DNA of 64,000 nucleotides from Bacteroidota bacterium (lineage in GTDB: Bacteria > Bacteroidota > Ignavibacteria > OLB7): assembly GCA_048498995.1 (NCBI GenBank), contig JBEHWX010000015.1, forward strand, positions 617 through 64,616, written 5' to 3'. The position numbers were made by a program, and so were the translations under genes. Shown here piece after piece: positions 4,566 through 61,423 of this stretch (position 1 is the stretch's first letter; every line of letters starts with the position of its first letter). The notes under the pieces were generated by a model. It made no database searches, had not been told where the DNA came from, and worked only from the letters and a program-made list of their open reading frames with translations.

Positions 4566-4789
4566 ACGGGAGTACTCGCGTGCTTCGATCTTTGTGGGCA
4601 TTCAGGCCCGGTTTCGGGCGGCGGGAATCAAGCGAGGCCCGATCTCAGATGCAAGGATATACGGACCGGCGCATTGGCCGGCTCCGTCACAGCTCCGGGG
4701 CCGCGCTCGGGCCGGCGCGCCACGGTTGGACAATCGGGGAAACATGCTCGCGGAGAAGCTCTCGCGGGAGCACCCTCACGCAGTCATTC

Positions 4790-14413: not shown

Positions 14414-17400
14414 TCAACGAATCCTCGCAATGGTTCCTGTCTGCTCCACCACGTCATCCTTCTGACGCACGCGCAGCTTGTAGAAATACACGCCGTTGGC
14501 CACCGGATATCCCTCCTCGTCGGTGCCGTCCCACCACGCCTCGTGGTAGCCGAGCGAGGTCGGCTGCCCGGTTCCCCCCTTCATGAAGGAGGCTTCCTCG
14601 GTCGGGACCGTGCTCGGCGAGCGGAACGTCCGGATCAGCTTGCCGGAAGTGGTGTAGAACTTCAGCTCCACCTCGTCGACCACGCTGGCGCCGCGGATCT
14701 CGTAGGCGAGGAAGGTCTCCCCCTCGAACGGGTTCGGGTAATTGCCGTAGATGCGGACGTTCAGTCCGGTCTCCACCTCGAAGCTCGTGCAGGCACGTCC
14801 GATGTTGCCGAGTCGGTCGGTCAGCTGCGCGCAGAGCTGATGCTTGCCGGCCGACAGATCCGGCTCGACCCGGATATTCATCGTCGTCGGCGTGACCGTC
14901 GAATCGATCACCACGAAATCCTGGTTCGCCTTCAGCACCCGCCCGTCGAGCGTGAGCGAGATCTTGTCGAGATCGGTCGTCACGCCGGAGGGATCGTTGA
15001 CCACGAGGCTGAAGCGCGGCTTCGGCGGCACCACCGTTCCATCGTTGTAGAACTGTCCGTCCACCGAGAACTTGATCTGCGGCCCCTCGTGATCCACCAC
15101 CACCACCAGCGCATAGGTTCCGTCGATCGGCACCGTGGCGCTCACCTCGTTGGAATCGGAGGATCGGGTGCTCTCGCGGAGCGACCAGAGACGGGTGGTC
15201 CGGTCGTAGCGGACGATCCCGAGCTGGCTCGAGAAGAGCGTGTCGCTCCGGTCGACGTGAAAGGCGAGCGTGCCGGTCACCTCGCGGTTCTCCGGGCGAT
15301 CGGCCTCCAGCGTCAGCGCCGTGGCGCCGACGGAGCCATCTCCCAGGCGGAGGAATGTCCAGCGCTGTTCGGTCGGCGGCAGCACCGGCTCGGCCGCGGC
15401 GGTCACCACGCCGGCCGTCGGGGCCGAGGTGATCGAGAAGGTGCCGATGCCCCGGATCGTGAAGAGGGGCGAGCCGGAGGGATCGCCCACGATTCCCCCA
15501 CCCTGCGTGAACGCGCCGGCCGCGAGCGAGGTGATGTTGAATGCCTTGTTGTTCGTCGGCAGAACGTCCTGCCACAGATCCCCGCTCTTCGGCGCGAGCT
15601 CCAGGCGGACCGTGCGGCGCACCGGAAGCTGCGAGGGAATGGCGTGGGTCACCACGAGCGAGTCGTGCGCCGGAAGATCAACGGTTCCGCTGGCGAGCGT
15701 GACGCTCGCCCCGGCGCTGTCGAGATAGAAGATCGAATAGGGAACGCCCTGCGCGGCGCGATCTCCCCAGTTGTAGATCGTGGCCGAAAGCCTGGCGCCG
15801 TCGGCGGCCGCCCGCATGCCGATCGTCTCGTTGGTCAGGGTCTCCATCGCTTCGGACGGCTGGCCGTAGCTCTCCCCCGTCGAGTCGATCGCGGAGATGC
15901 GCCGGGCCGCGGGCTCCGCGCCGCCGGGAACGTAGAAGACGAAGGTCGAGTCGCCGGTGGCGAGCGTCGCGGCCGGCACCACCACGGTGATGCGCGCGCC
16001 GGGCTGGATATCCGCGCCTGCGACCGGCGTCGTGGTCCGGTAGGTGCCGGGGCCGGTCTTGGCCACCGGGAAGCTTCGCTTGGTGTAGACCGCCGAGCCG
16101 GGATGCTCCAGCGAGATCAGCACGTGATCGATGTCCACGTCGCGCGCCGAGGTGATGTCGAACGTGGCATCCTGGCCGACGCCGAGCGTCCCGACCGGAC
16201 GGACGCCGACGATCGAGGCGCTGGCCAGCGGATAGCGGAGGCTGCCGGTGGCGGTCCGCCCGGTGGCGTCGGAGGCATAGAGGCGAATGCCGACGTAGCT
16301 CTGCGCGTAGCCGGCCGGCACCTGGCGCGACACGTTGATCGTGCCGTTGCCGCCGAGCTCCACGCGCGTGCCGGGAATCGCCGTCTCGGTCGTGTCGACG
16401 AGCGTGGCGATCACCTTCGTCGCCGCGAACGGCAGCGTGGCGCGCAGCGAGACAGTTCCCCCCGGCGTCGCCGTGGTGGCGCCATCGAACGAGGTCGCGA
16501 TGCTCTCCTGCGTGATCGGCACGCGCACCGACGGATCGCCGAAGATGCTGTACATCGCCGCGAGCGTCGGCACGTTGTCCTCGAAGCGGGACTGGTAGTT
16601 GCCGATGTACTTGGCCTTGCCGAGCGCGACGAGCTCGCCGAAGCTGAGGCCGCGGTAGCGCGGATTGTTCAGGACCGAGAAGAATGATTCGGCCAGATAG
16701 GTGTTGTTCAGCAGCCACCCGAAGCCGGGGGTGCCGAGTCCGACGATGGCGCCGCCGCGCGGCTGCACCATGAACGCCGAGAGGAGCCCCTTGTCCGGCG
16801 TGTAGGTGCCGGTAAAGCAGGTGAGGCTCAGGATGGCCGGCATCCGGTTCTCGTTCTTCACCTTGTAGACAGTGCTGGCCGAGACCACGAGCGCGTCCTC
16901 CCACTGCCCGCCGCCGCCATGGCCGAGGTAGGTGACCATGCCGGAGCCCTGATCGTTCATCAGCGGCAGCAGGCGCCCCGGGTCGCCGTAGGCGCCGCTC
17001 ATGAACTCCGGCCCCGTCAGAATGCGGAACGGCTCGGAGGTGTAGCGGAACTCCTCCTCGACGAAACGGTTGATCTGGCTGGCGAACTCGATGTTGAATC
17101 CGGCGATGAACGTGGTCCGGTTGCGCCACTCGCCGAGATCGTTGGCCCGCTCCTGATTGATCAGCTTGCTCACGTAGTCGGAGATCTGCGAGAGCGACCG
17201 CACCGGCACGCGGCCGACGATCACCTCCGGGAAGAAGTCCGGGATCACCCGCTTGACCGCTCCCTCGGCCGAGTTCTGCCGCACCACCGCGTCGCCGTCG
17301 AAGCAGCCGAGCAGGTAGTCGCACTGCGTGGGACCGTAGTCCACGGTCTGGAACATGATCGTCGGAACGTACGCGTGCTCCTTGTAGTAGTCGGAGCCGA

Positions 17401-19774
17401 CCTCAGGCACCACCCCGGAGGCGAAGATCAGCGCGTACTTCGGCGCGCGCCGCCAGTTGTGGGCCGCGTAGCGGAAGAACTCCCGGATGGCCCACGGCGA
17501 GACCGCGCCGCCGCTGAACTCGTCGTAGATGTCGCCGACGCGCACGATCCGAACGCGCTCGCCCCGCTCCTCGCGGAACCGGGCGAACCTGTTGAGCGGA
17601 TGCTCCGGATCATTGAGCGTGGACAGCTTCGCGGTCGAATCGTCGACGATGACGATGTAGGAGAAATCGTTGTCCGGCGAGCGCAGACCCACGGCGCGAT
17701 CGCGGAGCATGAGCGGCCGCTGGATCTGCGACTCGGTCACCGCGGTGAAGTGCTCCTTGTCGGAGGCGACATAGAGCTGGAACTGCGCGGTGTACGTGCT
17801 TTCGGTCGCGGTATCCTTCCCCGGCTCGGTGATCCGCTGGAGCGCGAAGTTGATCACGCGCGAGATCCCGTCGCGGTAGATCCGGATGTTCTGCGAGTTG
17901 AAGTCGCGGACGCTGAAGGTGACGTAGCTGGGACCGAGTCCGGGCGGGGCCGTGAAGTCGAGACGGTTGTTCCGGGCTACGTAGTAGCGCTGGTAGGTCA
18001 GGTCGAACCAGTTGACGAAGAAGCGCTCCTTGTACTCGGAGGTGTCCGGCCCGACGTTGACGAAGTTGATCGTCGCGTCCCCCTTGGGATCGAGATTCGC
18101 GCTGGTGACGCGGTGAACCTTCGCCGAATCGGTCGCCACGATCAGCTTGGCCTGCCCGACGAAGCTGGTGTCGAAGGCGAGCTGGTTCTGGATGTAGACG
18201 CCGAAGGTATGCCGCGCCCGGAGCGCCTGCTCGCGGAAGAGTCCGGAGGGAGAGGCGCCGCGCAGGGCCGCGACCATCCTCACCGGCTCGCTCCGGAGGA
18301 CGTTCGGATTGGGGAGCTCGATCTGGAAGGTGGCGATCCCCTTGGCCGGCACCGAGCTCCACATGTAGTTGTCGAACAGATCGCTGTAGCTGTTGAGCTC
18401 GACGTTGTTCAGCTCGGCCGTCCCCGGCCCCACCAGATCCTGTTCGAAGTGGATCGTGGAGGGGAACGACGAATTCCGGTTGGTCAGATCGATCACCCGC
18501 CTCGGATCGGTGACTCTGACGTCGCCGCTCTCGTCGACGATCCGTTTGCCGAGCCCTCCTCCCCAGGTCAGATAGAAGGTCGAGTAGCGGGTGTAGGGAT
18601 CGAAGTAGAGATCGCTCTTGGAGCTGCCGCTCGGCGTGGCGCCGTTGGCGGTCGCGCCGCTGTCGGCGCGCTTGCGCTGGCCGAAGAACTCGAAGTATTC
18701 CTCGTTGAGCGTGTCCTCGTCCAGATGCGCGTCGCCGCGATCGTAGAGGTAGATCGGCACCTCGATGCCGTTCCGGTAGAGCTTCAGCGTCCGCGCGTCG
18801 ATGGAGCCGACCGGCAGGCCGAGCGCCGCCAGATCGCGGACCCGGACGCGGTAGATCCCGTCCTGATCCGTGTAGAATTTGTAGCGGAAGCCGTCCGGCG
18901 CCACGGTCGGATCTACCGGCGCGGCCGACATCAGCGCGCTCCCCTCCTTTCTGACGCGTCCGGCGTCGGCGAACGCCGAGGCGATGCTCTCCACGCCGGC
19001 CGGATCGACGCGCGTCTCGCTCTCGACGCGGAGCACGATGCTCCGGGCCCAGAGGATCACCTTGCGGGCGGGATCGTAGCGATACGGGTGGATCAGCAGC
19101 GTGGAGATGGGATGATCGCCGACGAGGCCGCCGAAACGGACCTCGGCCCATTCGGCCGGATAGATCCCGGTCGGGCGGATCGCCGGAAGCTTCGCGAGGG
19201 CGGCGCTGTCGCGCGATTCGATGCCGGAGAGTGGAACGTCGGTGGTCGGACTGAAGGTCATCGACGGGGCGGCGATCTCGACGATATCGACCGATTCGAT
19301 AACGACGCGGGAGCCCTTGAGGGCCAGATCCTTGCTGAAGCCAGTCAGGTCGATGCCGGGAATCGCGTAGCGGTCGAGCCCCTCGGGAGTCGCCGGCGGA
19401 AGCGTGGCGCCCCCCGCGGTCCGTGGAGATGGAAAGGAATACTCGAGCCGGACGGCGCGATCGCCGACCGTGCTGACGCTGGCGACCAGGGATGCCCGCT
19501 GGGAAGCGCGACCATCGAATCCGCGCGACGTCGCGACATCCGTCGTCGTCGCGCCATCCGAGCGCTCGCCGGAGCGGCCGCCACGGACGGTCGAGGAGGC
19601 CGAAGCGCCCCCGGAGATGCCTGCGGCGCCGCCACGCGCCGTGGATCCGACGCTCTGCGCGCGGGCATCGCCGGCGGCAAGAGCGAAGAGCAACAGCGAA
19701 AGCGCCACCGGCCGGAAGAGCCAATGACGGGAAACGCGGGCGAACGATCTCGAACTCGACGGCTCGATCGGCAT
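14414..19774 (-). CDS. porU: T9SS C-terminal signal peptidase / sortase PorU-like (peptidase C25 family), giant form
   Basis: ~1786 aa with signal peptide. Gingipain-like catalytic blocks YLGHGGGGQWEDA (His) and LSLTCFTGTY (Cys). It has its own T9SS CTD ending GVYFYKLRVRQKDDVVEQTGTIARIR. Adjacent to the PorV-like gene. Confidence 0.7.
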   Translation of the reverse strand: MPIEPSSSRSFARVSRHWLFRPVALSLLLFALAAGDARAQSVGSTARGGAAGISGGASASSTVRGGRSGERSDGATTTDVATSRGFDGRASQRASLVASVSTVGDRAVRLEYSFPSPRTAGGATLPPATPEGLDRYAIPGIDLTGFSKDLALKGSRVVIESVDIVEIAAPSMTFSPTTDVPLSGIESRDSAALAKLPAIRPTGIYPAEWAEVRFGGLVGDHPISTLLIHPYRYDPARKVILWARSIVLRVESETRVDPAGVESIASAFADAGRVRKEGSALMSAAPVDPTVAPDGFRYKFYTDQDGIYRVRVRDLAALGLPVGSIDARTLKLYRNGIEVPIYLYDRGDAHLDEDTLNEEYFEFFGQRKRADSGATANGATPSGSSKSDLYFDPYTRYSTFYLTWGGGLGKRIVDESGDVRVTDPRRVIDLTNRNSSFPSTIHFEQDLVGPGTAELNNVELNSYSDLFDNYMWSSVPAKGIATFQIELPNPNVLRSEPVRMVAALRGASPSGLFREQALRARHTFGVYIQNQLAFDTSFVGQAKLIVATDSAKVHRVTSANLDPKGDATINFVNVGPDTSEYKERFFVNWFDLTYQRYYVARNNRLDFTAPPGLGPSYVTFSVRDFNSQNIRIYRDGISRVINFALQRITEPGKDTATESTYTAQFQLYVASDKEHFTAVTESQIQRPLMLRDRAVGLRSPDNDFSYIVIVDDSTAKLSTLNDPEHPLNRFARFREERGERVRIVRVGDIYDEFSGGAVSPWAIREFFRYAAHNWRRAPKYALIFASGVVPEVGSDYYKEHAYVPTIMFQTVDYGPTQCDYLLGCFDGDAVVRQNSAEGAVKRVIPDFFPEVIVGRVPVRSLSQISDYVSKLINQERANDLGEWRNRTTFIAGFNIEFASQINRFVEEEFRYTSEPFRILTGPEFMSGAYGDPGRLLPLMNDQGSGMVTYLGHGGGGQWEDALVVSASTVYKVKNENRMPAILSLTCFTGTYTPDKGLLSAFMVQPRGGAIVGLGTPGFGWLLNNTYLAESFFSVLNNPRYRGLSFGELVALGKAKYIGNYQSRFEDNVPTLAAMYSIFGDPSVRVPITQESIATSFDGATTATPGGTVSLRATLPFAATKVIATLVDTTETAIPGTRVELGGNGTINVSRQVPAGYAQSYVGIRLYASDATGRTATGSLRYPLASASIVGVRPVGTLGVGQDATFDITSARDVDIDHVLISLEHPGSAVYTKRSFPVAKTGPGTYRTTTPVAGADIQPGARITVVVPAATLATGDSTFVFYVPGGAEPAARRISAIDSTGESYGQPSEAMETLTNETIGMRAAADGARLSATIYNWGDRAAQGVPYSIFYLDSAGASVTLASGTVDLPAHDSLVVTHAIPSQLPVRRTVRLELAPKSGDLWQDVLPTNNKAFNITSLAAGAFTQGGGIVGDPSGSPLFTIRGIGTFSITSAPTAGVVTAAAEPVLPPTEQRWTFLRLGDGSVGATALTLEADRPENREVTGTLAFHVDRSDTLFSSQLGIVRYDRTTRLWSLRESTRSSDSNEVSATVPIDGTYALVVVVDHEGPQIKFSVDGQFYNDGTVVPPKPRFSLVVNDPSGVTTDLDKISLTLDGRVLKANQDFVVIDSTVTPTTMNIRVEPDLSAGKHQLCAQLTDRLGNIGRACTSFEVETGLNVRIYGNYPNPFEGETFLAYEIRGASVVDEVELKFYTTSGKLIRTFRSPSTVPTEEASFMKGGTGQPTSLGYHEAWWDGTDEEGYPVANGVYFYKLRVRQKDDVVEQTGTIARIR

Positions 19775-19858
19775 GGCTTCGATGAAGCTGTACGCGGGAG
19801 GGCTAGAGTGCAATCGAACTCAACGGAAGGCTGGGGGAAACCTGACCCGGTAATGGAA

Positions 19859-24713: not shown

Positions 24714-27275
24714 ATGATCATGAGAAGACTCCCATTCCTCCTGCTGAAAATCGCCTCCCTGGGAATCACCGCGATGATGATCGCCTCGCCGAGGGGAACG
24801 GCTCAGCAGCCTCCCATTACCTCCCCGCCGGCCCGAGATACGTACGTGCCGGACGGTCCGGTCAACGCCATGGTCGGATACGACGGACGCATCGTGCTCG
24901 GAGGACGCTTCACGGCGCTGGCACCGGGCAACGGCGGCATCATGGCACTTGATCCAGCGACCGGGAAGGCAACGGGACTCTCGGCACGGGTCCTGGAAGT
25001 GATGGCCGCGGTCGAGGACGGCCACGGGGGGTGGTACGCCATGGGGAAGCTCGATCCCAACAAGCCAACGTACCTGCCCACGCATCTGATCCGCTTGAGC
25101 CCGCGCGGCGTACTGCTCGACGCGTGGGAATGCCCGGTAAGAGCTGTTGAAAGCGCGCTGAGCAGCGTTCAATGCATGGCGCGCCATGGCGATACGATCG
25201 TCATCGGCGGGAGCTTCGATTCGGTGGCCGGGGCACCACGGAGGAACCTGGCGCTGCTCGACCTGCGCACGCGCGGTCTGTTGCCGCTCGAGCTGAATGT
25301 CGACTCCACGGTCACCGCGGCCGCGTTCGACGGACGGAGAATCGTGATCGGCGGCCTCTTCGATTCGGTCGGCGGAGTGCGTCTTTCCCATCTGGCACGA
25401 ATCGACCTCGAGACCGGGAAGCCGGCTAGCTGGATCCCCTCGCTCGACGGATATCAAAGCAGCGATCGGTATATCAACGTCATTCGCCGACTCGTGCTCC
25501 ACGGCGACGAGCTGATCACGCAGTGGGGGAATGTCGATATCGAAACCGGCGAAGCACGATCGTGGCAACCACTCCCGGAGAAGCGTGTCTCCGACTCCTA
25601 CTTCTTCGCTCAGGTCACCGATATCGCCGTTACCGGCGACACGGTGATTGCCGCCGGCGCGTTCAACATCATCAATGGCGAGCCGCGACATGGCGTCGCC
25701 GCGTTCGACCTGCGCAGCGGTGAGCTCCTCGACTGGGATCCCAATCGCGAATGGCAGCAGTCCTACAAGGGGGCCGATGCCTACGCCAACATCCAGACCG
25801 TCGCCATCTCCCAGGGGACGGCTTTCGTTGCCGGACGTTTCGAGCGCTTCGATACAGGGGCTTGTAACGGGATCGTCGGCTTCGACGTGAGAAGTGGCGC
25901 CGTAACCTCGCGTCCGCCGGCACTTCCCGGGACCTATGATCTGAAGATCCTCCTGGCGGCGAGCGATTCGGGCGTGCTGGCGCGGACACTGGTATTTCCG
26001 ACCCTCGGCACACCCGTCACGCGGCGCGTCGGACTGGTGGAGCTGGTGAACTCGGGAAGGGAGATCACGAGCTGGGATCCCGATCTCCGAAGCGGAACGT
26101 TCGAGCGCGTGGGCAGCGGGTTCGTCGGACCGCTGCCGACGGTGCGGGTCCGGAGCCTGGTGGCGGATAAGGGCGTGCTCTATGTCGGCGGCTTGTTCGA
26201 TTCGGTGGGCACCACGGTCCGCCACAGCCTGGCGGCCTTCGAGCTCGCCACACACCGTCTCCTCCCATTCGATCCGCAGGTGGAGGGCGGCGATATCCGC
26301 TACATGAAGATCCACGATGGCGTTCTTTACCTGTCGGGCGGGTTCTCCATGGTCGGCGGCGCCGTGCGTCGCGGATGCGCGGCGGTCGATCTGGCCACGG
26401 GTGAGGTTCTCCCCTGGGCGCCGGAACCGGACGGCGGGATCGTCTCGATGGACTTCGATGGCGACCGTATCTACGTGGCCGGCGGTTTCGACATGATTGC
26501 CGGAGCCGCGCGCTCCGGATTCGCCGTTCTGGACCGCGCGACCGGCCAGCTCATCGATGAGGGAATTCGGCTGAGCAAGGGCGGCCGCGCGACGCTCGTC
26601 CAGATCGTCGGTGATCGTGTCTACCTCACGGCCTCCGGGTATCCCGCATCGATCCTCGACAGGGCGACCGATGCCACGCTCGTCCCGTTCGACAAACGAT
26701 CATGGGAGCCGCTCTGGCCAAAGCCACGCACCGGATATGGATGGATCACTCCGAGCGGAATCGTTCCCTGGGAGAACGCCGTGATCGCGCTCGGAATCGC
26801 GTCGACGGAGGATGGAGTATACGTCTCGGCCGAGGAGGGCGTCCACCTCCTAGATACGGCAACCGGCGCGCGCATCGGCATCGGGCCAACTTCGATGAAC
26901 ATCTCGGAATCGTGGTCCGCGGTCAGGTCGGGAGATACGCTCTTCCTCGGCGCTCAATTCACCACCCTCGGCAATCGTAGGGTGTACGCCTTCACCCGGC
27001 TCGATCCGAATGTCTCATCCCTCGTTCGTCGCGAGCCGGTGGATGAGCCATCCGATATACTGCTGTATCCGAACCCGGCCCGGGATATCGTTTCCGTTGC
27101 GATCTCCGCCGCGGCGCTCCCGGACATCGTCCATATCCTCGATGTGCTCGGTCGGGAAGTCGCGACCGCCGCGATGACGAATGGCCGCGCGACGATCTCC
27201 ACCGCCGAGCTCTCCACCGGACGCTACGAAGTCGTTGCCGGCGGGCGAAGGGCCGGGCTCATCATCGCGCGATGA
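24714..27275 (+). CDS. Secreted delta-60-repeat-like beta-propeller protein with T9SS C-terminal sorting domain
   Basis: Signal peptide, then ~55-60 aa repeats of the form (V/I)xxGGxFxxVGG...R..LA.(L/F)D..TG..L.W.P, delta-60-like. C-terminal ILLYPNPARDIVSVAI...GRYEVVAGGRRAGLIIAR is a T9SS CTD. Confidence 0.75.
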   Translation: MIMRRLPFLLLKIASLGITAMMIASPRGTAQQPPITSPPARDTYVPDGPVNAMVGYDGRIVLGGRFTALAPGNGGIMALDPATGKATGLSARVLEVMAAVEDGHGGWYAMGKLDPNKPTYLPTHLIRLSPRGVLLDAWECPVRAVESALSSVQCMARHGDTIVIGGSFDSVAGAPRRNLALLDLRTRGLLPLELNVDSTVTAAAFDGRRIVIGGLFDSVGGVRLSHLARIDLETGKPASWIPSLDGYQSSDRYINVIRRLVLHGDELITQWGNVDIETGEARSWQPLPEKRVSDSYFFAQVTDIAVTGDTVIAAGAFNIINGEPRHGVAAFDLRSGELLDWDPNREWQQSYKGADAYANIQTVAISQGTAFVAGRFERFDTGACNGIVGFDVRSGAVTSRPPALPGTYDLKILLAASDSGVLARTLVFPTLGTPVTRRVGLVELVNSGREITSWDPDLRSGTFERVGSGFVGPLPTVRVRSLVADKGVLYVGGLFDSVGTTVRHSLAAFELATHRLLPFDPQVEGGDIRYMKIHDGVLYLSGGFSMVGGAVRRGCAAVDLATGEVLPWAPEPDGGIVSMDFDGDRIYVAGGFDMIAGAARSGFAVLDRATGQLIDEGIRLSKGGRATLVQIVGDRVYLTASGYPASILDRATDATLVPFDKRSWEPLWPKPRTGYGWITPSGIVPWENAVIALGIASTEDGVYVSAEEGVHLLDTATGARIGIGPTSMNISESWSAVRSGDTLFLGAQFTTLGNRRVYAFTRLDPNVSSLVRREPVDEPSDILLYPNPARDIVSVAISAAALPDIVHILDVLGREVATAAMTNGRATISTAELSTGRYEVVAGGRRAGLIIAR

Positions 27276-44902: not shown

Positions 44903-46375
44903 TCAGCGTCCCACGTTCAGGAAGAGCTGCGGAAGAAAGCCGATCACCAGCGTGCCGACGATCGTCAGCGCCAGCGCCAGACGGGAGGCTCCGCCGGCGG
45001 CGACCACGGCGGTCGACTCCCCTTCCGGCTCCCGGAAGAACATGTTGACGATCAGCCCGAGGTAGAACCAGGCCGAGATCACCGAGGAGACCACGCCGAC
45101 GATCGCCAGCCAGGTCATGTCCGCCTCGACCGCGGCGTTGAACAGGTAGTACTTGCCGAAGAACCCGGCGAACGGCGGGATGCCGGTGAGCGAGAACATG
45201 AAGAGCGCCATCACCACCGCCAGTCCCGGACGACGGCGGCCGAGGCCGCGATAGTCGTCGATCGAGACGTTGCCGCCATTCTCCTGCTCGAGCATGCCGA
45301 CGACGGCGAAGGCGCCGAGCTGCATGAAGAGATAGGCCGCCAGGTAGTACATGATGCCGGTCCAGCCGGTCTGGTTGCCGGCGGCCACGCCGATCATCGC
45401 GTAGCCGGCATGGGCCACCGAGGAGTAGGCGAGCATCCGCTTGATGTTCGTCTGGGCGATCGCCGTGATGTTGCCGATCAGCATCGAGCCGACGGCCAGC
45501 AGCGCCAGCACCTCGTGGGCGTTCCCCATGCCGATTGCCCCCTGGTTGGAGACCACCGGGATCATCACGCCGACGAAGCCGCTGAAGGCCGCGGCCTTGC
45601 CGGCCGTGCTCATGAAGCCGGTGACCACCGTCGGCGCTCCCTGGTAGACGTCCGGCGCCCACTGATGGAACGGGAAGGCGGCGACCTTGAAGCTCAATCC
45701 GACGATCAGCAGCCCCATGCCGACCCAGAAGACGGCCGGGCCGTGGGCCAGACCGTTGGCCAGCGGAGCGCCGCTGCCAGCGGCCGCGGCCGTGGTGCCG
45801 AAGCCGAGAATGCCGCTGTAGTTCATGGTGCCGGTGGCCCCGTAGATCAGCGCCATGCCGAAGACCAGGAAGCCGGAGGCGAAGGCGCCGAGCAGGAAGT
45901 ACTTCAGCGCGGCCTCGTTCGAGGCCAGGCGACGCCGGAGGAAGCCGGACATCACGTAGAAGCAGATCGACATCACCTCGATGCCGACGAACAGGGGCAT
46001 GAAGTTGGCGCTGTGCGAGATCAGCATCATGCCGGCGATCGACATCATCAGCAGGGTGTAGAACTCGTCGTACATCCCTCCCATCCGCTCCATGTACTCG
46101 CGCGCCAGCAGGATGGTCATGATGCCGGCGGTGCAGAAGATGATGTCGAAGACATTGGCCATTCCCCCCGACGTGATCATTCCGTCGAAGCCGGACATCT
46201 TCGTGGTGAGCGTCCAGGCGGCGGCGACGATGCCGCCGATGAGACCGAGGATCGAGAGCCAGGCGCAGGCGCGCGTGCTCTTGCCGATCAGAGCGTCGAC
46301 CAGCATCACCAGAAGCGCCGCCGTGGCGACGATCTCGATCGGAAGTGCGGCTCGGATGTCTGGAGAAAGCATCAT
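44903..46375 (-). CDS. nuoN: NADH-quinone oxidoreductase subunit N
   Basis: Start MMLSPDIRAALPIEI at 46375 within a longer spurious ORF. ~14 TM helices and NuoN/ND2 conserved blocks (FKVAAFPFHQWAPDVYQGAP, MLAYSS). Confidence 0.85.
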   Translation of the reverse strand: MMLSPDIRAALPIEIVATAALLVMLVDALIGKSTRACAWLSILGLIGGIVAAAWTLTTKMSGFDGMITSGGMANVFDIIFCTAGIMTILLAREYMERMGGMYDEFYTLLMMSIAGMMLISHSANFMPLFVGIEVMSICFYVMSGFLRRRLASNEAALKYFLLGAFASGFLVFGMALIYGATGTMNYSGILGFGTTAAAAGSGAPLANGLAHGPAVFWVGMGLLIVGLSFKVAAFPFHQWAPDVYQGAPTVVTGFMSTAGKAAAFSGFVGVMIPVVSNQGAIGMGNAHEVLALLAVGSMLIGNITAIAQTNIKRMLAYSSVAHAGYAMIGVAAGNQTGWTGIMYYLAAYLFMQLGAFAVVGMLEQENGGNVSIDDYRGLGRRRPGLAVVMALFMFSLTGIPPFAGFFGKYYLFNAAVEADMTWLAIVGVVSSVISAWFYLGLIVNMFFREPEGESTAVVAAGGASRLALALTIVGTLVIGFLPQLFLNVGR

Positions 46376-47646
46376 AGGAAGAATAGAAGCCAAACGATGA
46401 TGAGAACCGGCAGAAGCATCGGGATCGAATACCGGGTCATGTAGCCGAAGAACCCGGGCATGCGTACCCCGGCATGCTCCGCAATCGATTTTACCATGAA
46501 GTTCGGGCCGTTGCCGATATAGCTCATCGCCCCGAAGAAGACCGCCGAAACCGAGATCGCCACCACGCGAAGCCCGTCTCCGGCCAGATATTCCCGCACG
46601 TGAACCGGGTCGCCGACGTTCAGGCCGGCCGATCCCATCGCCGCGGCGAGGAAGTTCAGATACGTCGGCGCATTGTCCAGAAAGCTGCTCAACGCCCCGG
46701 TCCCCCAGTAGAGCCCCCCGGGCGAATCGATCCCGAGCGAGGCCGCGTGCGCGCCGAGCCAGTCGAGCGCTGGGATCATCGTCAGGAAGATCCCGGCGAA
46801 GAGCCAGGCCACCTCCTCGATCGGGTGGAAGCTGAAGTGATTCCCCCGATGGATCTCCGGCTTCGTGCTCCGGTAGCTGACGAACGCCGCCGAGATCATC
46901 AGCGCCTCGCGCAGCAGCAGCGGCCGCTCGATGAAGACCGCCCCGATCACCACCGCCAGCAGCGCCAGGTTGTGAAGCCCGGTCACCCGCGTCGTGTCGT
47001 TCTCGGCCTCGACCTGCCGGCGCAGCTCCTCCGGCATCTTCCGGTAGCTTCGCGTGTCGAGCCCCCAGAAGACCGCCAGCAGGACCGCCGTGGCCGTGAG
47101 CCAGGGAGCGATCGCGTGCCGCGTGATCCAGAAGAACGGGATCCCCCGGATGTAGCCGAGGAACAGCGGCGGATCGCCGATCGGCGTCAGCGCCCCGCCG
47201 ACGTTCGAGATCAGAAAGATGAAAAAGATCACATGGAAGGCCGAGACCCGGTACTTGTTGTTCCGGAGATACGGCCTGATCAGGAGCATCGAGGCGCCGG
47301 TCGTCCCGAGCAGGTTCGCCAGGACGGTCCCGATGGCGAGCATCGCCACGTTCTCCCCCGGCGTCGAGCGCCCCTTGATCCGGACGTGGATGCCGCCGGC
47401 GACCACGTAGAGCGATCCGATCAGCGCGATGAAGCTCGCGTACTCCCCCACCGCGTGCACCACGCGGGAGGTCTGATCGAGGGCCACCACATACCATCCG
47501 GCGACGAAGAGCCCGAGCAGCGAGGCCACCATCCGGTAGCGCCTGCCCCACCAGTCACCCGCGATGAAGGGCATCAGCGCGATCGACAGCAGCAGGAGCG
47601 CGAACGGCAGGATGAGCCAGGGACTGACCCCCTCGCCGGCATGCAT
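46372..47646 (-). CDS. Ion-transporter-superfamily permease (ArsB/NhaD/CitMHS-like Na+/H+ antiporter or anion permease)
   Basis: 424 aa, ~11-12 TM helices, conserved block GNGPNFMV. Its stop overlaps the nuoN ATG (ATGA) and its start lies 5 nt after the nuoM stop. Confidence 0.7.
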   Translation of the reverse strand: MHAGEGVSPWLILPFALLLLSIALMPFIAGDWWGRRYRMVASLLGLFVAGWYVVALDQTSRVVHAVGEYASFIALIGSLYVVAGGIHVRIKGRSTPGENVAMLAIGTVLANLLGTTGASMLLIRPYLRNNKYRVSAFHVIFFIFLISNVGGALTPIGDPPLFLGYIRGIPFFWITRHAIAPWLTATAVLLAVFWGLDTRSYRKMPEELRRQVEAENDTTRVTGLHNLALLAVVIGAVFIERPLLLREALMISAAFVSYRSTKPEIHRGNHFSFHPIEEVAWLFAGIFLTMIPALDWLGAHAASLGIDSPGGLYWGTGALSSFLDNAPTYLNFLAAAMGSAGLNVGDPVHVREYLAGDGLRVVAISVSAVFFGAMSYIGNGPNFMVKSIAEHAGVRMPGFFGYMTRYSIPMLLPVLIIVWLLFFL

Positions 47647-47650
47647 CCGG

Positions 47651-49360
47651 TTATCGGCCGCCCTGCGGCGGAGCCGGCGCCACCTGCACGCCGCCGTTGC
47701 CCGGCATGCCCGGGGGCATTCCCTGCGGCATCCGCATGCCGCGCGGCACGCCCTGCATCCCCGGCTGCACCGTCATGCCCGGCATCGGCGGCTGCGCGCC
47801 GACCGGAGCCGCGGACGTGTCCTGCCCCAGACGGAGACGGGTCTCCATCGCGTAGCGGTTCACTCCCTTGAGCCCCTCGACCACGCCGACGATGCCCCGC
47901 GTGGAGCTCTCGGAGACCGACAGGAACGTGTTCGGGTGGAAGCCGATCCAGATGCAGAAGATCACCATCGGCACCAGCAGGCCGATCTCCAGGCCGTTCA
48001 GGTCCTTGAGGCGTCCGTTCTCCGCCTTGGTGATCGGGCCGAGGAACATCCGCTGGAAGAGAATCAGCAGATAGACCGCCGCCAGGATCACGCCGGAGGC
48101 GCCGACCACCGCGTACCACTTCGAGCCGAGGTGGCCGGAGATGAACGCGCCGAGCAGCGTCAGATACTCGCCCACGAAGCCGTTGAGCCCCGGAAGGCCG
48201 ACCGAGGCGAGCATCGCCAGCGCGAAGAAGACCGCGTAGACCGGCATCGACTTGGCCAGGCCGCCGAACTCCGACATCTCGCGGGTGTGACGGCGCTCGT
48301 AGATGTAGCCGACCAGAAGGAAGAGCATGCCGGTCGACAGACCATGGTTGACCATCTGAAGGATGGCGCCCTGCACTCCCTCGGCGGTCATCGAGAAGAT
48401 GCCGAGGACCACGAAGCCGAGGTGGGCGATCGAGGAGTAGGCGACGAGCTTCTTGATATCGGTCTGCACCATCGCCAGCAGCGCGCCGTAGATGATGCCG
48501 ATCACCGCGAGGGTCGACAGCAGATCGGCGTAATAGAGCGAGGACTGCGGGAAGAGCTGGAGATTGAAGCGGACCAGGCCGTAGGTCCCCATCTTGAGCA
48601 TCATGCCGGCCAGGATCACCGAGCCGGCCGTCGGGGCCTGCGTGTGGGCGTCAGGCAGCCAGGTATGCAGCGGGAACAGAGGCACCTTCACGCAGAAGGA
48701 GAGCGCGAAGGCCAGGAACAGCCAGCGCTGCGCCTCCAGCGGCACCGTCGGCGCGATCGTCATCAGCTTCCGGAGATCGGCGGTGAAGTGTCCGGTCTGC
48801 ACCTGGGCGTAATGTCCCAGCCAGATGATCGCCACCAGCATCAGCAGCGAGGCGGCCATCGTGTAGAGGAAGAACTTCATCGAGGCGTAGATGCGATCCT
48901 TGCCGCCCCAGATGCCGATGAGGAAGTACATCGGGATCAGGATCACTTCCCAGAACACGTAGAACAGGAACGTGTCGAGCGAGGCGAAGACGCCGATCAG
49001 GCCGAACTCCAGCAGCAGAAGCATGATGTAGTAGAGCTTCTCGCGGTCCTTGATCGCCTCCCAGCTCGAGATGATGCCGATCGGCATCATGAACGTGGAG
49101 AGGAGCACCAGCAGGAGCGACATGCCGTCCAGGCCGAAGCGGAAGCCGACGTCGAGCGTCGGGATCCAGGTCTGATCGGTGAGGAACTGAAAGGCCGGAT
49201 TCGCCTTGTCGAAGCCGAACCAGAGTCCGAGCGAGACGAGGAAGGCGATGATCGACCCGGCGGCCGACACCGTCCGGTGCGCCGCTCTGTTCTCGGCCGG
49301 AATCAGGGCCAGGATCAGCGCGGTCACCAGCGGAATGAGGAGCGTGATAACGAGGAGCAT
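47651..49360 (-). CDS. nuoM: NADH-quinone oxidoreductase subunit M with Met/Pro/Gly-rich C-terminal extension
   Basis: NuoM/ND4 blocks (WLPDAHTQAPTAGSVILAG, LVAYSSIAHLG) plus a ~70-aa tail QPPMPGMTVQPGMQGVPRGMRMPQGMPPGMPGNGG. Confidence 0.85.
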   Translation of the reverse strand: MLLVITLLIPLVTALILALIPAENRAAHRTVSAAGSIIAFLVSLGLWFGFDKANPAFQFLTDQTWIPTLDVGFRFGLDGMSLLLVLLSTFMMPIGIISSWEAIKDREKLYYIMLLLLEFGLIGVFASLDTFLFYVFWEVILIPMYFLIGIWGGKDRIYASMKFFLYTMAASLLMLVAIIWLGHYAQVQTGHFTADLRKLMTIAPTVPLEAQRWLFLAFALSFCVKVPLFPLHTWLPDAHTQAPTAGSVILAGMMLKMGTYGLVRFNLQLFPQSSLYYADLLSTLAVIGIIYGALLAMVQTDIKKLVAYSSIAHLGFVVLGIFSMTAEGVQGAILQMVNHGLSTGMLFLLVGYIYERRHTREMSEFGGLAKSMPVYAVFFALAMLASVGLPGLNGFVGEYLTLLGAFISGHLGSKWYAVVGASGVILAAVYLLILFQRMFLGPITKAENGRLKDLNGLEIGLLVPMVIFCIWIGFHPNTFLSVSESSTRGIVGVVEGLKGVNRYAMETRLRLGQDTSAAPVGAQPPMPGMTVQPGMQGVPRGMRMPQGMPPGMPGNGGVQVAPAPPQGGR

Positions 49361-49564: not shown

Positions 49565-51523
<1,959 letters not shown>

Positions 51524-51562: not shown

Positions 51563-52456
51563 TTACTCGTAGACGAACTCCGCCTTCTCGAACGGAAGCT
51601 CGATGTCGGCGAAGCGGATCGTCAGATCATCCTCGACGATGATCATGGAGTTGCGCGTGACTTTCGTCCACTCGGACTTGTGGGAGGTGAATGGCTCGGA
51701 GGCGATCACCACCGCCTCGCTTCTCCCGTCGTCCGGCTTCATGTAGCAGCGATCCTCGGTGGCCACGTACTCCCTGCCGAACATATAGTAGAGGGAGGCC
51801 GGCTGCACCCGCGGGTTGGTCGTGTAGCGGGTGGCCACCAGCGAGCGGCCGTTGGAGACCACGAGGTTCAGGTAGGAATGCTCCCTGACGTCGTGCTCCA
51901 CCAGGAGGCGGTTCAGATCGGCGAACATCCCGAACATGGCGTCGACCATCTCGTCGGTCGTCACCGGACCCTCGGGGTCGCGAAGATTGTTCAGGAACAG
52001 GCCGAACAGATGCTCGGAGTCGGTCGAGCCGTGCACCGCGTCGTAGGCGGCGTCCTTCAGCTCCCGGAGCAGCGAGCGGCGAATCGTCTTGAAGCCCTGC
52101 ACCATGCCGTTGTGCATCCAGGTGAGCTTGCCGTGCACGAACGGGTGGCAGTTGACCTCCTCGACCAGCGATCCCGGCGTTGCCGCGCGGATATGCGCGA
52201 AGAGCATCGTCGTCTTCACCTTGCGCGCCAGGTAGCGGAGGTTCATGTCCGACCAGGCCGGATGCACCGAGCGGAACTGACAGGGCTCGTCGTCCAGCTC
52301 GAAATCGTACCAGCTGACGCCGAAGCCGTCACCGTTGATCGGCACCGACATCTCCTGCGCTCCCATCGACTGGCGGTCGATCAGCGAGTGCTGCGGACGG
52401 TACAGAAGATCATTGGCGAGGACGGGCTTCCCTATATAGGCAAGGAATCGGCACAT
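51563..52456 (-). CDS. Class-II (Ntn) glutamine amidotransferase family protein (YafJ/EgtC-like)
   Basis: Starts MCRFLAYIGKPV with the nucleophile Cys2, then GATase-2 fold blocks (HIRAATPG..., NCHPF). Start taken at MCRF, not the 9-aa longer ORF. Confidence 0.65.
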   Translation of the reverse strand: MCRFLAYIGKPVLANDLLYRPQHSLIDRQSMGAQEMSVPINGDGFGVSWYDFELDDEPCQFRSVHPAWSDMNLRYLARKVKTTMLFAHIRAATPGSLVEEVNCHPFVHGKLTWMHNGMVQGFKTIRRSLLRELKDAAYDAVHGSTDSEHLFGLFLNNLRDPEGPVTTDEMVDAMFGMFADLNRLLVEHDVREHSYLNLVVSNGRSLVATRYTTNPRVQPASLYYMFGREYVATEDRCYMKPDDGRSEAVVIASEPFTSHKSEWTKVTRNSMIIVEDDLTIRFADIELPFEKAEFVYE

Positions 52457-52690
52457 GGTCAACTGGGGGTTCACGATCATCGAAGAGGACTACAGACCGC
52501 GAATATACGCATGGAATCGAGACCGGAACCGTCTTGAATTATCGAGGTCGGCGCAATGGTCCGGATATGGTCGGGCGCCCCGGCGGCAATGCCCGCACCG
52601 CCACGGCCGCGCGCCATGCCCCGAACGGATCCTCGATGCTCCGGGAGACTGGGACGAAAAGGCCGGATTTCCCGGCCGTATGCCCCGATC

Positions 52691-55720: not shown

Positions 55721-57010
55721 CTATTCGACATGGATGGGAACACACCGTGCTCCGGCTCTCCCGCCCCACCGCGCGAAGTAGAGCCCGGACGGCATGGCGC
55801 CGGTATCCCACCGATAGCGCCGACGCCCCGACTCATCCAATGTCCCACCTTCAAGCGTTGCGACGACGCGCCCGAGGAGATCGATGACCTCAACACGAGC
55901 CGCGACGTCATCGGGATCGGGGATGGCGATAGTCACGGTCGCATGCCGCGTCGGGTTCGGCGCCACGAGCGCGGGAAGCTCCGGTGCCGCACGCGGTACC
56001 CCCGACGACTGGGCACGATAGGCGAGGATCACGAAGTTCGTCGAGACCGTGTAGGCATGGCCGACCGAGGGATAGGCTAGGTAGAGCAGATTCGTGATGT
56101 CGGCCGTGTCGAACCCCGTCTGCTGCTGTATCCACGCCCGCCCGCCGTCGGATGTCCGCAGGATCTTGCCGTTACCTCCCACCGCGATGCCGTTGCGATT
56201 ATCGACGAAGGCCACGTTCCTGAGTCCGAACGCCTGGGGAATGGCCTGATAGACCTGATACTCCCAGCTATGTCCCCCATCGGTCGTCGCGGCGATGATA
56301 TCCTTCTCGAGGTCGCCGACGCCGGTGCGCTCACCCCCGACGGCCCAGCCATGCATCCGATCCGGGAATGCGATCGCCAGACAGTTTCGGAGTTGGGGCG
56401 TCACGATGAACTCCCACGTCTTCCCTCCATCCATTGAACGTCCGAGGGCGGTCTCATCCTTTGACTTCAGTCGGATAACAACCGTTTCAGAATCGATGAG
56501 CTGAACAGGGAAAATTGCGAATCCACCGAGGCTATCCGGCAGTGTGATGTCTACCGAGTTCCAGCTGGCACCTCCATCTTCGGTTTTGAACAGAGAGCGA
56601 GGAGCGGCCGAGAGATATCCGAGATCACCTCTGAAGGAGAGGCCGAACGCCTGCGAGCCCCCGACGGGGAGCCGTGTCGTATCCCAGGAGGCACCATCGT
56701 TCAGTGTTCTCAGCACGATACCGCTATCACATACCACGAAGAACACGCCGACCTTCGGATGAGCGAGCGTCCGGTAGAATCGCTTGGTGGGCTTGTCAGG
56801 AAAAATCAGCGAGTCGTAGAGGATGCCCTTCCAGCTTCGCCCTCCATCGGTACTCCGACGCAACAGACTTTTGTAGCCGGAGGAGTCGCCGATCACCGCG
56901 CAGTGGATACTATCGGCGCAGGCGATGCCGCGAAATATGCACTCGCAGGTAGAGTCAATATGCACCCATTCGCCTATCTGTCCCGATAGACAACTCGGCC
57001 AGGCAAAGGA
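55721..57010 (-). repeat. Near-identical ~1.3 kb direct duplication; partner 60036..61325
   Basis: Long stretches are identical at nucleotide level (e.g. ggatgggaacaca...ccgcgcgaagtagag.ccggacggcat), with divergence only at the 5' (signal peptide) end of each gene. Confidence 0.8.
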
Positions 57011-57079
57011 GGCAAAAAACATCACGGCGATAACCGGAGCGAGAATGCTTCGCGGATGCTGCATTGGCAGAAACATCAA
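55721..57079 (-). CDS. BNR/Ycf48-like beta-propeller protein with T9SS C-terminal sorting domain (copy A)
   Basis: Repeated S/T-x-D-G-G-x-S/T-W BNR motifs. C-terminal LVAPNPTRHATVTIAIPDPDD...GLYFARWGGRAGARCVPIHVE is a T9SS CTD. The C-terminal ~430 aa are near-identical to 60032..61423. Confidence 0.75.
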   Translation of the reverse strand: MMFLPMQHPRSILAPVIAVMFFASFAWPSCLSGQIGEWVHIDSTCECIFRGIACADSIHCAVIGDSSGYKSLLRRSTDGGRSWKGILYDSLIFPDKPTKRFYRTLAHPKVGVFFVVCDSGIVLRTLNDGASWDTTRLPVGGSQAFGLSFRGDLGYLSAAPRSLFKTEDGGASWNSVDITLPDSLGGFAIFPVQLIDSETVVIRLKSKDETALGRSMDGGKTWEFIVTPQLRNCLAIAFPDRMHGWAVGGERTGVGDLEKDIIAATTDGGHSWEYQVYQAIPQAFGLRNVAFVDNRNGIAVGGNGKILRTSDGGRAWIQQQTGFDTADITNLLYLAYPSVGHAYTVSTNFVILAYRAQSSGVPRAAPELPALVAPNPTRHATVTIAIPDPDDVAARVEVIDLLGRVVATLEGGTLDESGRRRYRWDTGAMPSGLYFARWGGRAGARCVPIHVE

Positions 57080-60031: not shown

Positions 60032-61423
60032 TTACTCGACATGGATGGGAACACACTGGGCCCCGTCTCTCCCACTCCACCGCGCGAAGTAGAGGCCGGA
60101 CGGCATCGCGCCGGTATCCCACCGATAGCGCCGACGCCCCGACTCATCCAATGTCCCACCTTCAAGCGTTGCGACGACGCGCCCGAGGAGATCGATGACC
60201 TCAACACGAGCCGCGACGTCATCGGGATCGGGGATGGCGATAGTCACGGTCGCATGCCGCGTCGGGTTCGGCGCCACGAGCGCGGGAAGCTCCGGTGCCG
60301 CACGCGGTACCCCCGACGACTGGGCACGATAGGCGAGGATCACGAAGTTCGTCGAGACCGTGTAGGCATGGCCGACCGAGGGATAGGCTAGGTAGAGCAG
60401 ATTCGTGATGTCGGCCGTGTCGAACCCCGTCTGCTGCTGTATCCACGCCCGCCCGCCGTCGGATGTCCGCAGGATCTTGCCGTTACCTCCCACCGCGATG
60501 CCGTTGCGATTATCGACGAAGGCCACGTTCCTGAGTCCGAACGCCTGGGGAATGGCCTGATAGACCTGATACTCCCAGCTATGTCCCCCATCGGTCGTCG
60601 CGGCGATGATATCCTTCTCGAGGTCGCCGACGCCGGTGCGCTCACCCCCGACGGCCCAGCCATGCATCCGATCCGGGAATGCGATCGCCAGACAGTTTCG
60701 GAGTTGGGGCGTCACGATGAACTCCCACGTCTTCCCTCCATCCATTGAACGTCCGAGGGCGGTCTCATCCTTTGACTTCAGTCGGATAACAACCGTTTCA
60801 GAATCGATGAGCTGAACAGGGAAAATTGCGAATCCACCGAGGCTATCCGGCAGTGTGATGTCTACCGAGTTCCAGCTGGCACCTCCATCTTCGGTTTTGA
60901 ACAGAGAGCGAGGAGCGGCCGAGAGATATCCGAGATCACCTCTGAAGGAGAGGCCGAACGCCTGCGAGCCCCCGACGGGGAGCCGTGTCGTATCCCAGGA
61001 GGCACCATCGTTCAGTGTTCTCAGCACGATACCGCTATCACATACCACGAAGAACACGCCGACCTTCGGATGAGCGAGCGTCCGGTAGAATCGCTTGGTG
61101 GGCTTGTCAGGAAAAATCAGCGAGTCGTAGAGGATGCTCTTCCAGCTCCGCCCCCCATCGGTACTCCGACGCAACAGGCTTTTGTAGCCGGAGGAGTCGC
61201 CGATCACCGCACAATGGATACTGTCGGCGCAGGCTATGCCGCGAAATATGCACTCGCAGGTAGAGTCAATATGCACCCATTCGCCTATCTGTCCCGATAG
61301 ACAACTCGGCCAGGCAAAGCAGGCAAGAAATAGAAGCAACGCGATAAATGAGCTCCGACCCCCAATTCGCCGAAGCAGCAGTAACGCTATAGATATTGAA
61401 ATGCTCAGTAGATTCATGTTCAA
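60032..61423 (-). CDS. BNR/Ycf48-like beta-propeller protein with T9SS CTD (copy A', recent duplicate)
   Basis: 463 aa. Nucleotides ~60036..61325 are nearly identical to ~55721..57010; only the N-terminal signal region differs. Confidence 0.75.
   Translation of the reverse strand: MNMNLLSISISIALLLLRRIGGRSSFIALLLFLACFAWPSCLSGQIGEWVHIDSTCECIFRGIACADSIHCAVIGDSSGYKSLLRRSTDGGRSWKSILYDSLIFPDKPTKRFYRTLAHPKVGVFFVVCDSGIVLRTLNDGASWDTTRLPVGGSQAFGLSFRGDLGYLSAAPRSLFKTEDGGASWNSVDITLPDSLGGFAIFPVQLIDSETVVIRLKSKDETALGRSMDGGKTWEFIVTPQLRNCLAIAFPDRMHGWAVGGERTGVGDLEKDIIAATTDGGHSWEYQVYQAIPQAFGLRNVAFVDNRNGIAVGGNGKILRTSDGGRAWIQQQTGFDTADITNLLYLAYPSVGHAYTVSTNFVILAYRAQSSGVPRAAPELPALVAPNPTRHATVTIAIPDPDDVAARVEVIDLLGRVVATLEGGTLDESGRRRYRWDTGAMPSGLYFARWSGRDGAQCVPIHVE

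Follow-up and report, generated by a model that had tools for sequence, protein, structure and literature searches.

Complex I and NhaE-type antiporters

Whether and how sodium is involved in the energy conversion of respiratory complex I is an old dispute, in which Rhodothermus marinus was one of the key cases. In this bacterium, an antiporter gene and a pcd gene reportedly lie between nqo13 (nuoM) and nqo14 (nuoN), and are co-transcribed. The present study deals with a permease gene found in the same slot, i.e., between nuoM and nuoN, in a 64,000-nucleotide (nt) stretch of contig JBEHWX010000015.1 (positions 617 to 64,616, assembly GCA_048498995.1) of a Bacteroidota bacterium. The whole of this stretch is called the window. 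The gene encodes a transporter of the Ion Transporter (IT) superfamily, and the arrangement is conserved in many relatives. The product is probably an independent NhaE-type Na+/H+ antiporter that shares its transcript with the proton-pumping subunits.

In their title, Melo et al. 2005 (BBA 1709:95-103) place an nhaD antiporter among the complex I genes of R. marinus. In Escherichia coli, the R. marinus antiporter conferred resistance to Na+, not to Li+, at pH 6.5-7.5 (PMC9408914). The protein is without the Li+-binding residues of NhaD, and it founded the NhaE family, Transporter Classification (TC) 2.A.111. The second member of the family, from Neisseria meningitidis, also handles Li+ and has a broader pH range (PMC9408914). 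The complex I of R. marinus was itself proposed to move H+ out and Na+ in, by papers cited in PMC3464577.

The window is a new example of the arrangement already described in R. marinus in 2005. The antiporter of the R. marinus nqoB operon (Melo et al. 2005; Melo et al. 2006, BBRC 348:1011), at first named NhaD and now NhaE, has in common with the window permease that an IT-superfamily gene is placed among the membrane-arm genes of a Bacteroidota-type bacterium. There are also differences. In the window, nuoL is preceded by the gene of an EgtC-like amidotransferase, not by nuoJ and nuoK, and no pcd gene stands beside the antiporter. Moreover, the host of the window is a mesophile-type metagenome-assembled genome (MAG) of Kapabacteria, whereas R. 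marinus is a thermohalophile isolate.

Three antiporter groups were compared with the permease. With the NhaE family it shares the superfamily, the size (~420-470 amino acids, aa), the names given to homologues and the location of the gene among complex I genes. Its putative membership is assigned from gene slot, phylum-level lineage and superfamily. On the same basis of lineage, slot and superfamily, we infer that it is the ortholog of R. marinus NhaE. NhaD (TC 2.A.62) and ArsB belong to the same superfamily and have the same overall fold, with ArsB as the best structural match, but the sequence relation to the permease is distant. The Mrp (Mnh/Pha) antiporters are similar in that Na+/H+ antiport functions are genetically tied to NuoL/M/N-type subunits. 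However, the Mrp subunits are homologous to NuoL/M/N/K, whereas the window permease is unrelated to them and is predicted to be a single-chain, elevator-type carrier.

Organization of the nuo cluster

The permease gene (46372-47646, minus strand) starts with ATG and encodes 424 aa. It is enclosed by nuoM (47651-49360, minus, 569 aa) and nuoN (44903-46375, minus, 490 aa), the latter being the last gene of the cluster, and the first gene of the local cluster is nuoL (49565-51523, minus, 652 aa). The three Nuo products were aligned over their full length and exceeded the curated NCBI cut-offs. NuoL matched TIGR01974 (NDH_I_L) with 749.5 bits against a cut-off of 407.5, over residues 5-650, NuoM matched TIGR01972 (NDH_I_M) with 596 bits against 264, and NuoN matched TIGR01770 (NDH_I_N) with 423.8 bits against 332.6. 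In Pfam, the domains Proton_antipo_N, Proton_antipo_M and Proton_antipo_C were found in NuoL and Proton_antipo_M in NuoN.

Both junctions of the permease were read directly from the sequence. The stop codon of nuoM (TAA, 47653-47651) is followed by a 4-nt spacer, CCGG (47647-47650, minus), and the ATG of the permease (47646-47644) begins at the fifth base past the stop. At the other end, the stop codon TGA (46374-46372) overlaps the ATG of nuoN (46375-46373) in the sequence ATGA (46372-46375, minus). The initial annotation had given the same open reading frame (ORF), a start 5 nt after the nuoM stop, and a stop overlapping the nuoN ATG. All three agree exactly with the reading here, to which the minus strand was added. 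There is no in-frame start farther upstream, because the ORF list opens at the first start past a stop. A promoter and terminator scan within the cluster gave nothing beyond shuffled expectation, and no such site was sensibly placed.

The cluster in the window covers only a part of complex I. The nuoJ and nuoK genes were not found by tblastn of the 64-kb window, and Pfam scans of 20 further window genes gave no other nuo gene, so that no nuoA-K is present within the 64 kb. In the gene run of the window, nuoN is followed by hrcA, grpE and dnaJ.

At the C-terminus of NuoM (47651-47860, minus), a low-complexity tail of ~70 aa is rich in Pro, Met and Gly (…PPMPGMTVQPGMQGVPRGMRMPQGMPPGMPGNGG…). Among the compared relatives, only those of Kapabacteria (L001-L004 of the survey described below) have a tail; these tails are Pro-rich and their sequences are different. 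NuoM of Ignavibacteria ends ~50-70 residues earlier than that of the window.

Identity of the permease

The permease matched Pfam family PF16980 (CitMHS_2) with 483 bits (cut-off 25.7, E 1.1e-144) over profile positions 4-448 of 448. A second match, to PF03600 (CitMHS), was weak (39.7 bits), and no PF06450 match was found in the Pfam scan. In the same scan, no similarity to NuoL/M/N/K or Mrp subunits (PF00361, PF00420 etc.) was detected. The permease also had no match in the NCBIfam library at E <= 0.001, hence none to an NhaD-family model. This library presumably contains an NhaD model, TIGR00775, and the permease is therefore not a classical NhaD. Homologues are named in the source databases as "sodium:proton antiporter" (NCBI), "Na+/H+ antiporter NhaD/arsenite permease-like" and "transporter, UIT6 family", UIT6 presumably being a former name of NhaE.

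The gene is intact and has many homologues. An identical protein was called on seven independent assemblies. The word-indexed search gave at least 8000 homologue clusters, with full-length relatives at 64-71% identity, and the exhaustive search gave 748 clusters (50% identity clustering) at E <= 1e-30. In an alignment of 70 sequences, the window protein included, all 88 invariant columns are kept by the permease, e.g., N148, G157-D158-P159-P160, D324-N325, G378-N379 and P381-N382. Several acidic residues are among the invariant ones, e.g., D158, D197, E247, E278 and D324. The G+C content at third codon positions (GC3) is 0.90 in the permease, 0.93 in nuoM and 0.94 in nuoL, i.e., the codon usage is native. 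The permease is close to its nuo neighbours in this value and is therefore a long-resident gene. A recent horizontal insertion was also considered, and it was rejected since GC3 matches that of the neighbours.

An AlphaFold2 model of the permease, built on the alignment, had a predicted local distance difference test score (pLDDT) of 90.4 and a predicted template modelling score (pTM) of 0.88. Foldseek comparison of this model with the PDB gave 31 matches at E <= 0.001. The best matches, at probability 1.00 and with template modelling (TM) scores of ~0.5-0.6, were ArsB (10tp_A), NaCT (8uvb), NaDC3, VcINDY (5ul7) and yeast Pho90 (8r35), followed by TRAP membrane subunits. All matches at probability 1.00 were carriers of the IT superfamily. 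Identity to ArsB in the structural alignment was about 15%. No solved structure related to the permease was found by PDB sequence search, and an internal repeat between the N- and C-terminal halves was undetectable by hhalign (probability 0.5).

From the family match and the modelled fold, the permease is predicted to be a single-chain elevator-type secondary transporter of the IT superfamily. The permease had first been described as an ArsB/NhaD-like member of this superfamily, and both lines of evidence agree with that. The families proposed at that time (PF03600 and PF06450) are partly replaced. A family of the IT clan was indeed found, but it is PF16980.

Conservation of the arrangement in relatives

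NuoL, NuoM, NuoN and the permease were mapped onto the 80 best genomic loci, which are numbered with the prefix L here. The closest genomic relatives are Candidatus Kapaibacteriota MAGs, with 64-68% identity. In 52 of the 80 loci, belonging to Kapabacteria, Ignavibacteria and other Bacteroidota-type MAGs, nuoM is directly upstream of the permease. Among these 52 linked loci, nuoN is directly downstream in 39, one extra gene and then nuoN follow in seven, something else is downstream in four, and the contig ends in two. In Kapabacteria, Ignavibacteria and related lineages, the antiporter gene within the nuoLMN block is thus a stable trait.

The junctions are tight in these relatives as well. 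Between nuoM and the permease, the distance in 50 related loci is mostly -4 to +30 nt, and the junctions in the linked loci overall range mostly from a 4-nt overlap to a gap of ~50 nt. The -4 overlap of permease and nuoN that is seen in the window is also present in the Kapabacteria loci L001-L004. Some loci have a permease-nuoN gap of 200-600 nt, and no convincing ORF for a pcd gene was found in these gaps.

The region upstream of nuoL separates Kapabacteria from the others. Outside Kapabacteria, nuoJ and nuoK precede nuoL, so that the genes run nqo10-11-12-13-antiporter-14, and relatives from Ignavibacteria have this order in common with R. marinus. Ahead of nuoL in the window and in the three relatives closest to it, nuoJ and nuoK are missing. 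The gene found there in the window encodes an EgtC-like class II glutamine amidotransferase (51563-52480, minus), which matched TIGR03442 with 194 bits, under the cut-off of 219. In the Kapabacteria loci L001, L003 and L004, the nuoL-M-permease-N block is likewise preceded by an EgtC-like amidotransferase and not by nuoJ/nuoK, and the window protein is 84-87% identical to those of L001 and L003.

The initial annotation had contrasted the placement with the contiguous nuoL-M-N of canonical operons, and had proposed to look for the same order in relatives. The order was found there, with nuoM directly upstream of the permease in 52 of the 80 nearest loci. Its novelty is largely lost, since the arrangement extends through the clade and had already been published for R. 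marinus.

Stand-alone homologues

The other 28 of the 80 loci have no nuo neighbour. They include all homologues of Verrucomicrobiota and Acidobacteriota, some of Ignavibacteria, and a small number of MAGs whose labels are different or uninformative. Stand-alone homologues with 50-58% identity were found in Verrucomicrobiota, Acidobacteriota and Schekmanbacteria. Their gene contexts are varied, and two of them are near genes of K+/cation homeostasis, i.e., TrkH/TrkA with a CLC channel in one case and a Kef-type exchanger in the other.

In a neighbour-joining tree, nuo-linked and unlinked permeases interleave, and some stand-alone copies of Ignavibacteria nest inside linked clades. The nested unlinked copies are L023, L048, L056 and L062. 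Because linked and unlinked copies are mixed in the tree, the permease does not appear to need complex I to work. Judged from the same tree, there is no distinct subfamily of permeases that would belong to complex I only.

Other antiporters at the nuoM junction

Further antiporter genes are found at this position. The extra gene between permease and nuoN was found in L005, L007, L014, L015, L037, L049 and L079, all of which are Ignavibacteria/Bacteroidota MAGs. It encodes a 473-aa exchanger of the cation/proton antiporter (CPA) type (Na_H_Exchanger, PF00999, E 6e-56), and in L005 (7320-8741) it has 4-nt ATGA overlaps at both ends. In L053 (7373-12974), L047 and L052, nuoJ-K-L-M-permease comes directly before a complete Mrp cluster, which takes the usual place of nuoN. 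This cluster (mrpE, F, G, B, C, D and D) contains MNHE, MrpF, PhaG, MbhE-like, MnhB, Oxidored_q2 and two subunits of the Proton_antipo_M type.

Permease, CPA and Mrp genes are found at the same site, and therefore three unrelated kinds of Na+/H+ antiporter gather 3' of nuoM. This supports the idea that sodium export is co-regulated with proton pumping. In the papers searched, no mention was found of CPA and Mrp genes occurring together with the permease at this junction, or of how widespread the pattern is. Both points may be under-described.

Function of the permease

The best explanation of these results is that the permease works as an independent Na+/H+ antiporter of the NhaE type, with one transcript for it and the proton-pumping subunits, so that Na+ export and pH control would scale with respiratory proton pumping. 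We consider this explanation probable. The permease would be placed on one mRNA with nuoL, nuoM and nuoN and would be translationally coupled to them, and the amount of antiporter would then track that of the proton-pumping membrane arm. While complex I expels protons, the antiporter would readmit protons and expel Na+. In this manner, a part of the respiratory proton-motive force may be converted into a sodium gradient, which would serve Na+ extrusion and pH homeostasis.

Several points weigh against this explanation. The NhaE assignment of the window permease is drawn from gene position, phylum, superfamily and database names. The Pfam label of PF16980 is "putative citrate transport", and the permease is without an NCBIfam match at the threshold given above. 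In addition, the structural neighbours carry anions, i.e., arsenite, dicarboxylates, phosphate and sulfate. The fold leaves the substrate unfixed because the solved relatives are anion carriers.

These points lead to the alternative that the permease carries something else, e.g., an organic or inorganic anion as CitMHS, ArsB and DASS do, and that its operon position is regulatory or historical. The family name, the weak PF03600 match and the fact that every solved structural neighbour is an anion carrier would favour such a substrate. However, the neighbours in the same slot of relatives are cation/proton antiporters, and two stand-alone copies sit in contexts of K+/cation homeostasis. Among the proteins tied to this gene position, the only ones studied by experiment are Na+/H+ antiporters. 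The invariant acidic residues named above would also fit cation binding, which is a weak indication. An anion or other substrate is therefore judged unlikely.

A second alternative is that the permease is an accessory subunit, docked on complex I's membrane arm near NuoM and NuoN, and that the remodelled complex exchanges Na+ and H+ in its catalytic cycle. Stoichiometric partners often show a precise insertion between core subunit genes with translational coupling, many genomes have kept the position, and the proposal for R. marinus complex I, as cited in PMC3464577, has H+ moving out and Na+ moving in. On the other hand, other phyla encode homologues of 50-58% identity at a long distance from all nuo genes, and the four unlinked copies nest in linked clades. 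The R. marinus protein functions alone in E. coli (PMC9408914), and in the Pfam scan the permease resembled none of the Nuo or Mrp subunits. Since the slot also takes unrelated CPA and Mrp antiporters, co-regulation is indicated rather than a fixed docking partner. We regard a docked subunit as quite improbable.

The same evidence bears on the earlier suggestion of a functionally linked ion-handling component or a remodelled complex-I-like module. The first part can be retained, because positional conservation implies a link with the proton-pumping subunits. The second part is unsupported, as NuoL, NuoM and NuoN are ordinary full-length orthologues, stand-alone homologues exist, and the tree is interleaved.

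In a more speculative view, which we hold to be less likely still, cation/proton antiporters of Bacteroidota-type lineages would have a dedicated landing site at the junction after nuoM, occupied by NhaE-type genes in most lineages and additionally by CPA-type genes or whole Mrp clusters in some, and the NhaE-type protein would be a physical or kinetic partner of the membrane arm. If this were true, complex I of these lineages would be a combined machine that pumps H+ and exchanges Na+. The disputed reports of R. marinus complex I moving Na+ opposite to H+ would then also have a genetic explanation.

Finally, long spurious ORFs are common in GC-rich DNA and several overlap the permease region on both strands, but the possibility that the permease is such a chance frame or a decayed pseudogene, which the initial annotation had left open, is refuted by the full-length PF16980 match, the identical protein on seven assemblies, the homologues in thousands, the complete set of family-invariant residues, a GC3 typical of real genes in the window and the confident structure model.

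Other features of the window

A direct duplication was found at 55725-57019 and 60036-61330. The two copies are 1,295 bp long with 98.6% identity, and their starts are 4,311 bp apart. The larger part of two genes, of 452 and 463 aa, lies in the duplication, and their products look like the neighbouring BNR/Ycf48-like beta-propellers.

Markers of type IX secretion were found at 2286-4601, 14414-19813 and 24714-27275, i.e., a PorZ-like propeller, a 1,799-aa Peptidase_C25 protein and a Por_Secre_tail cargo. These markers fit a Bacteroidota-type (Kapabacteria) host.

Significance of the arrangement

The window and 52 related loci show that having an antiporter gene inside the nuoLMN block is no peculiarity of a single thermophile. 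For annotation of this protein, putative NhaE-type Na+/H+ antiporter is preferable to citrate transporter. The loci provide many natural variants, with which it can be asked if the antiporter works as an enzyme of its own or together with complex I as its partner.

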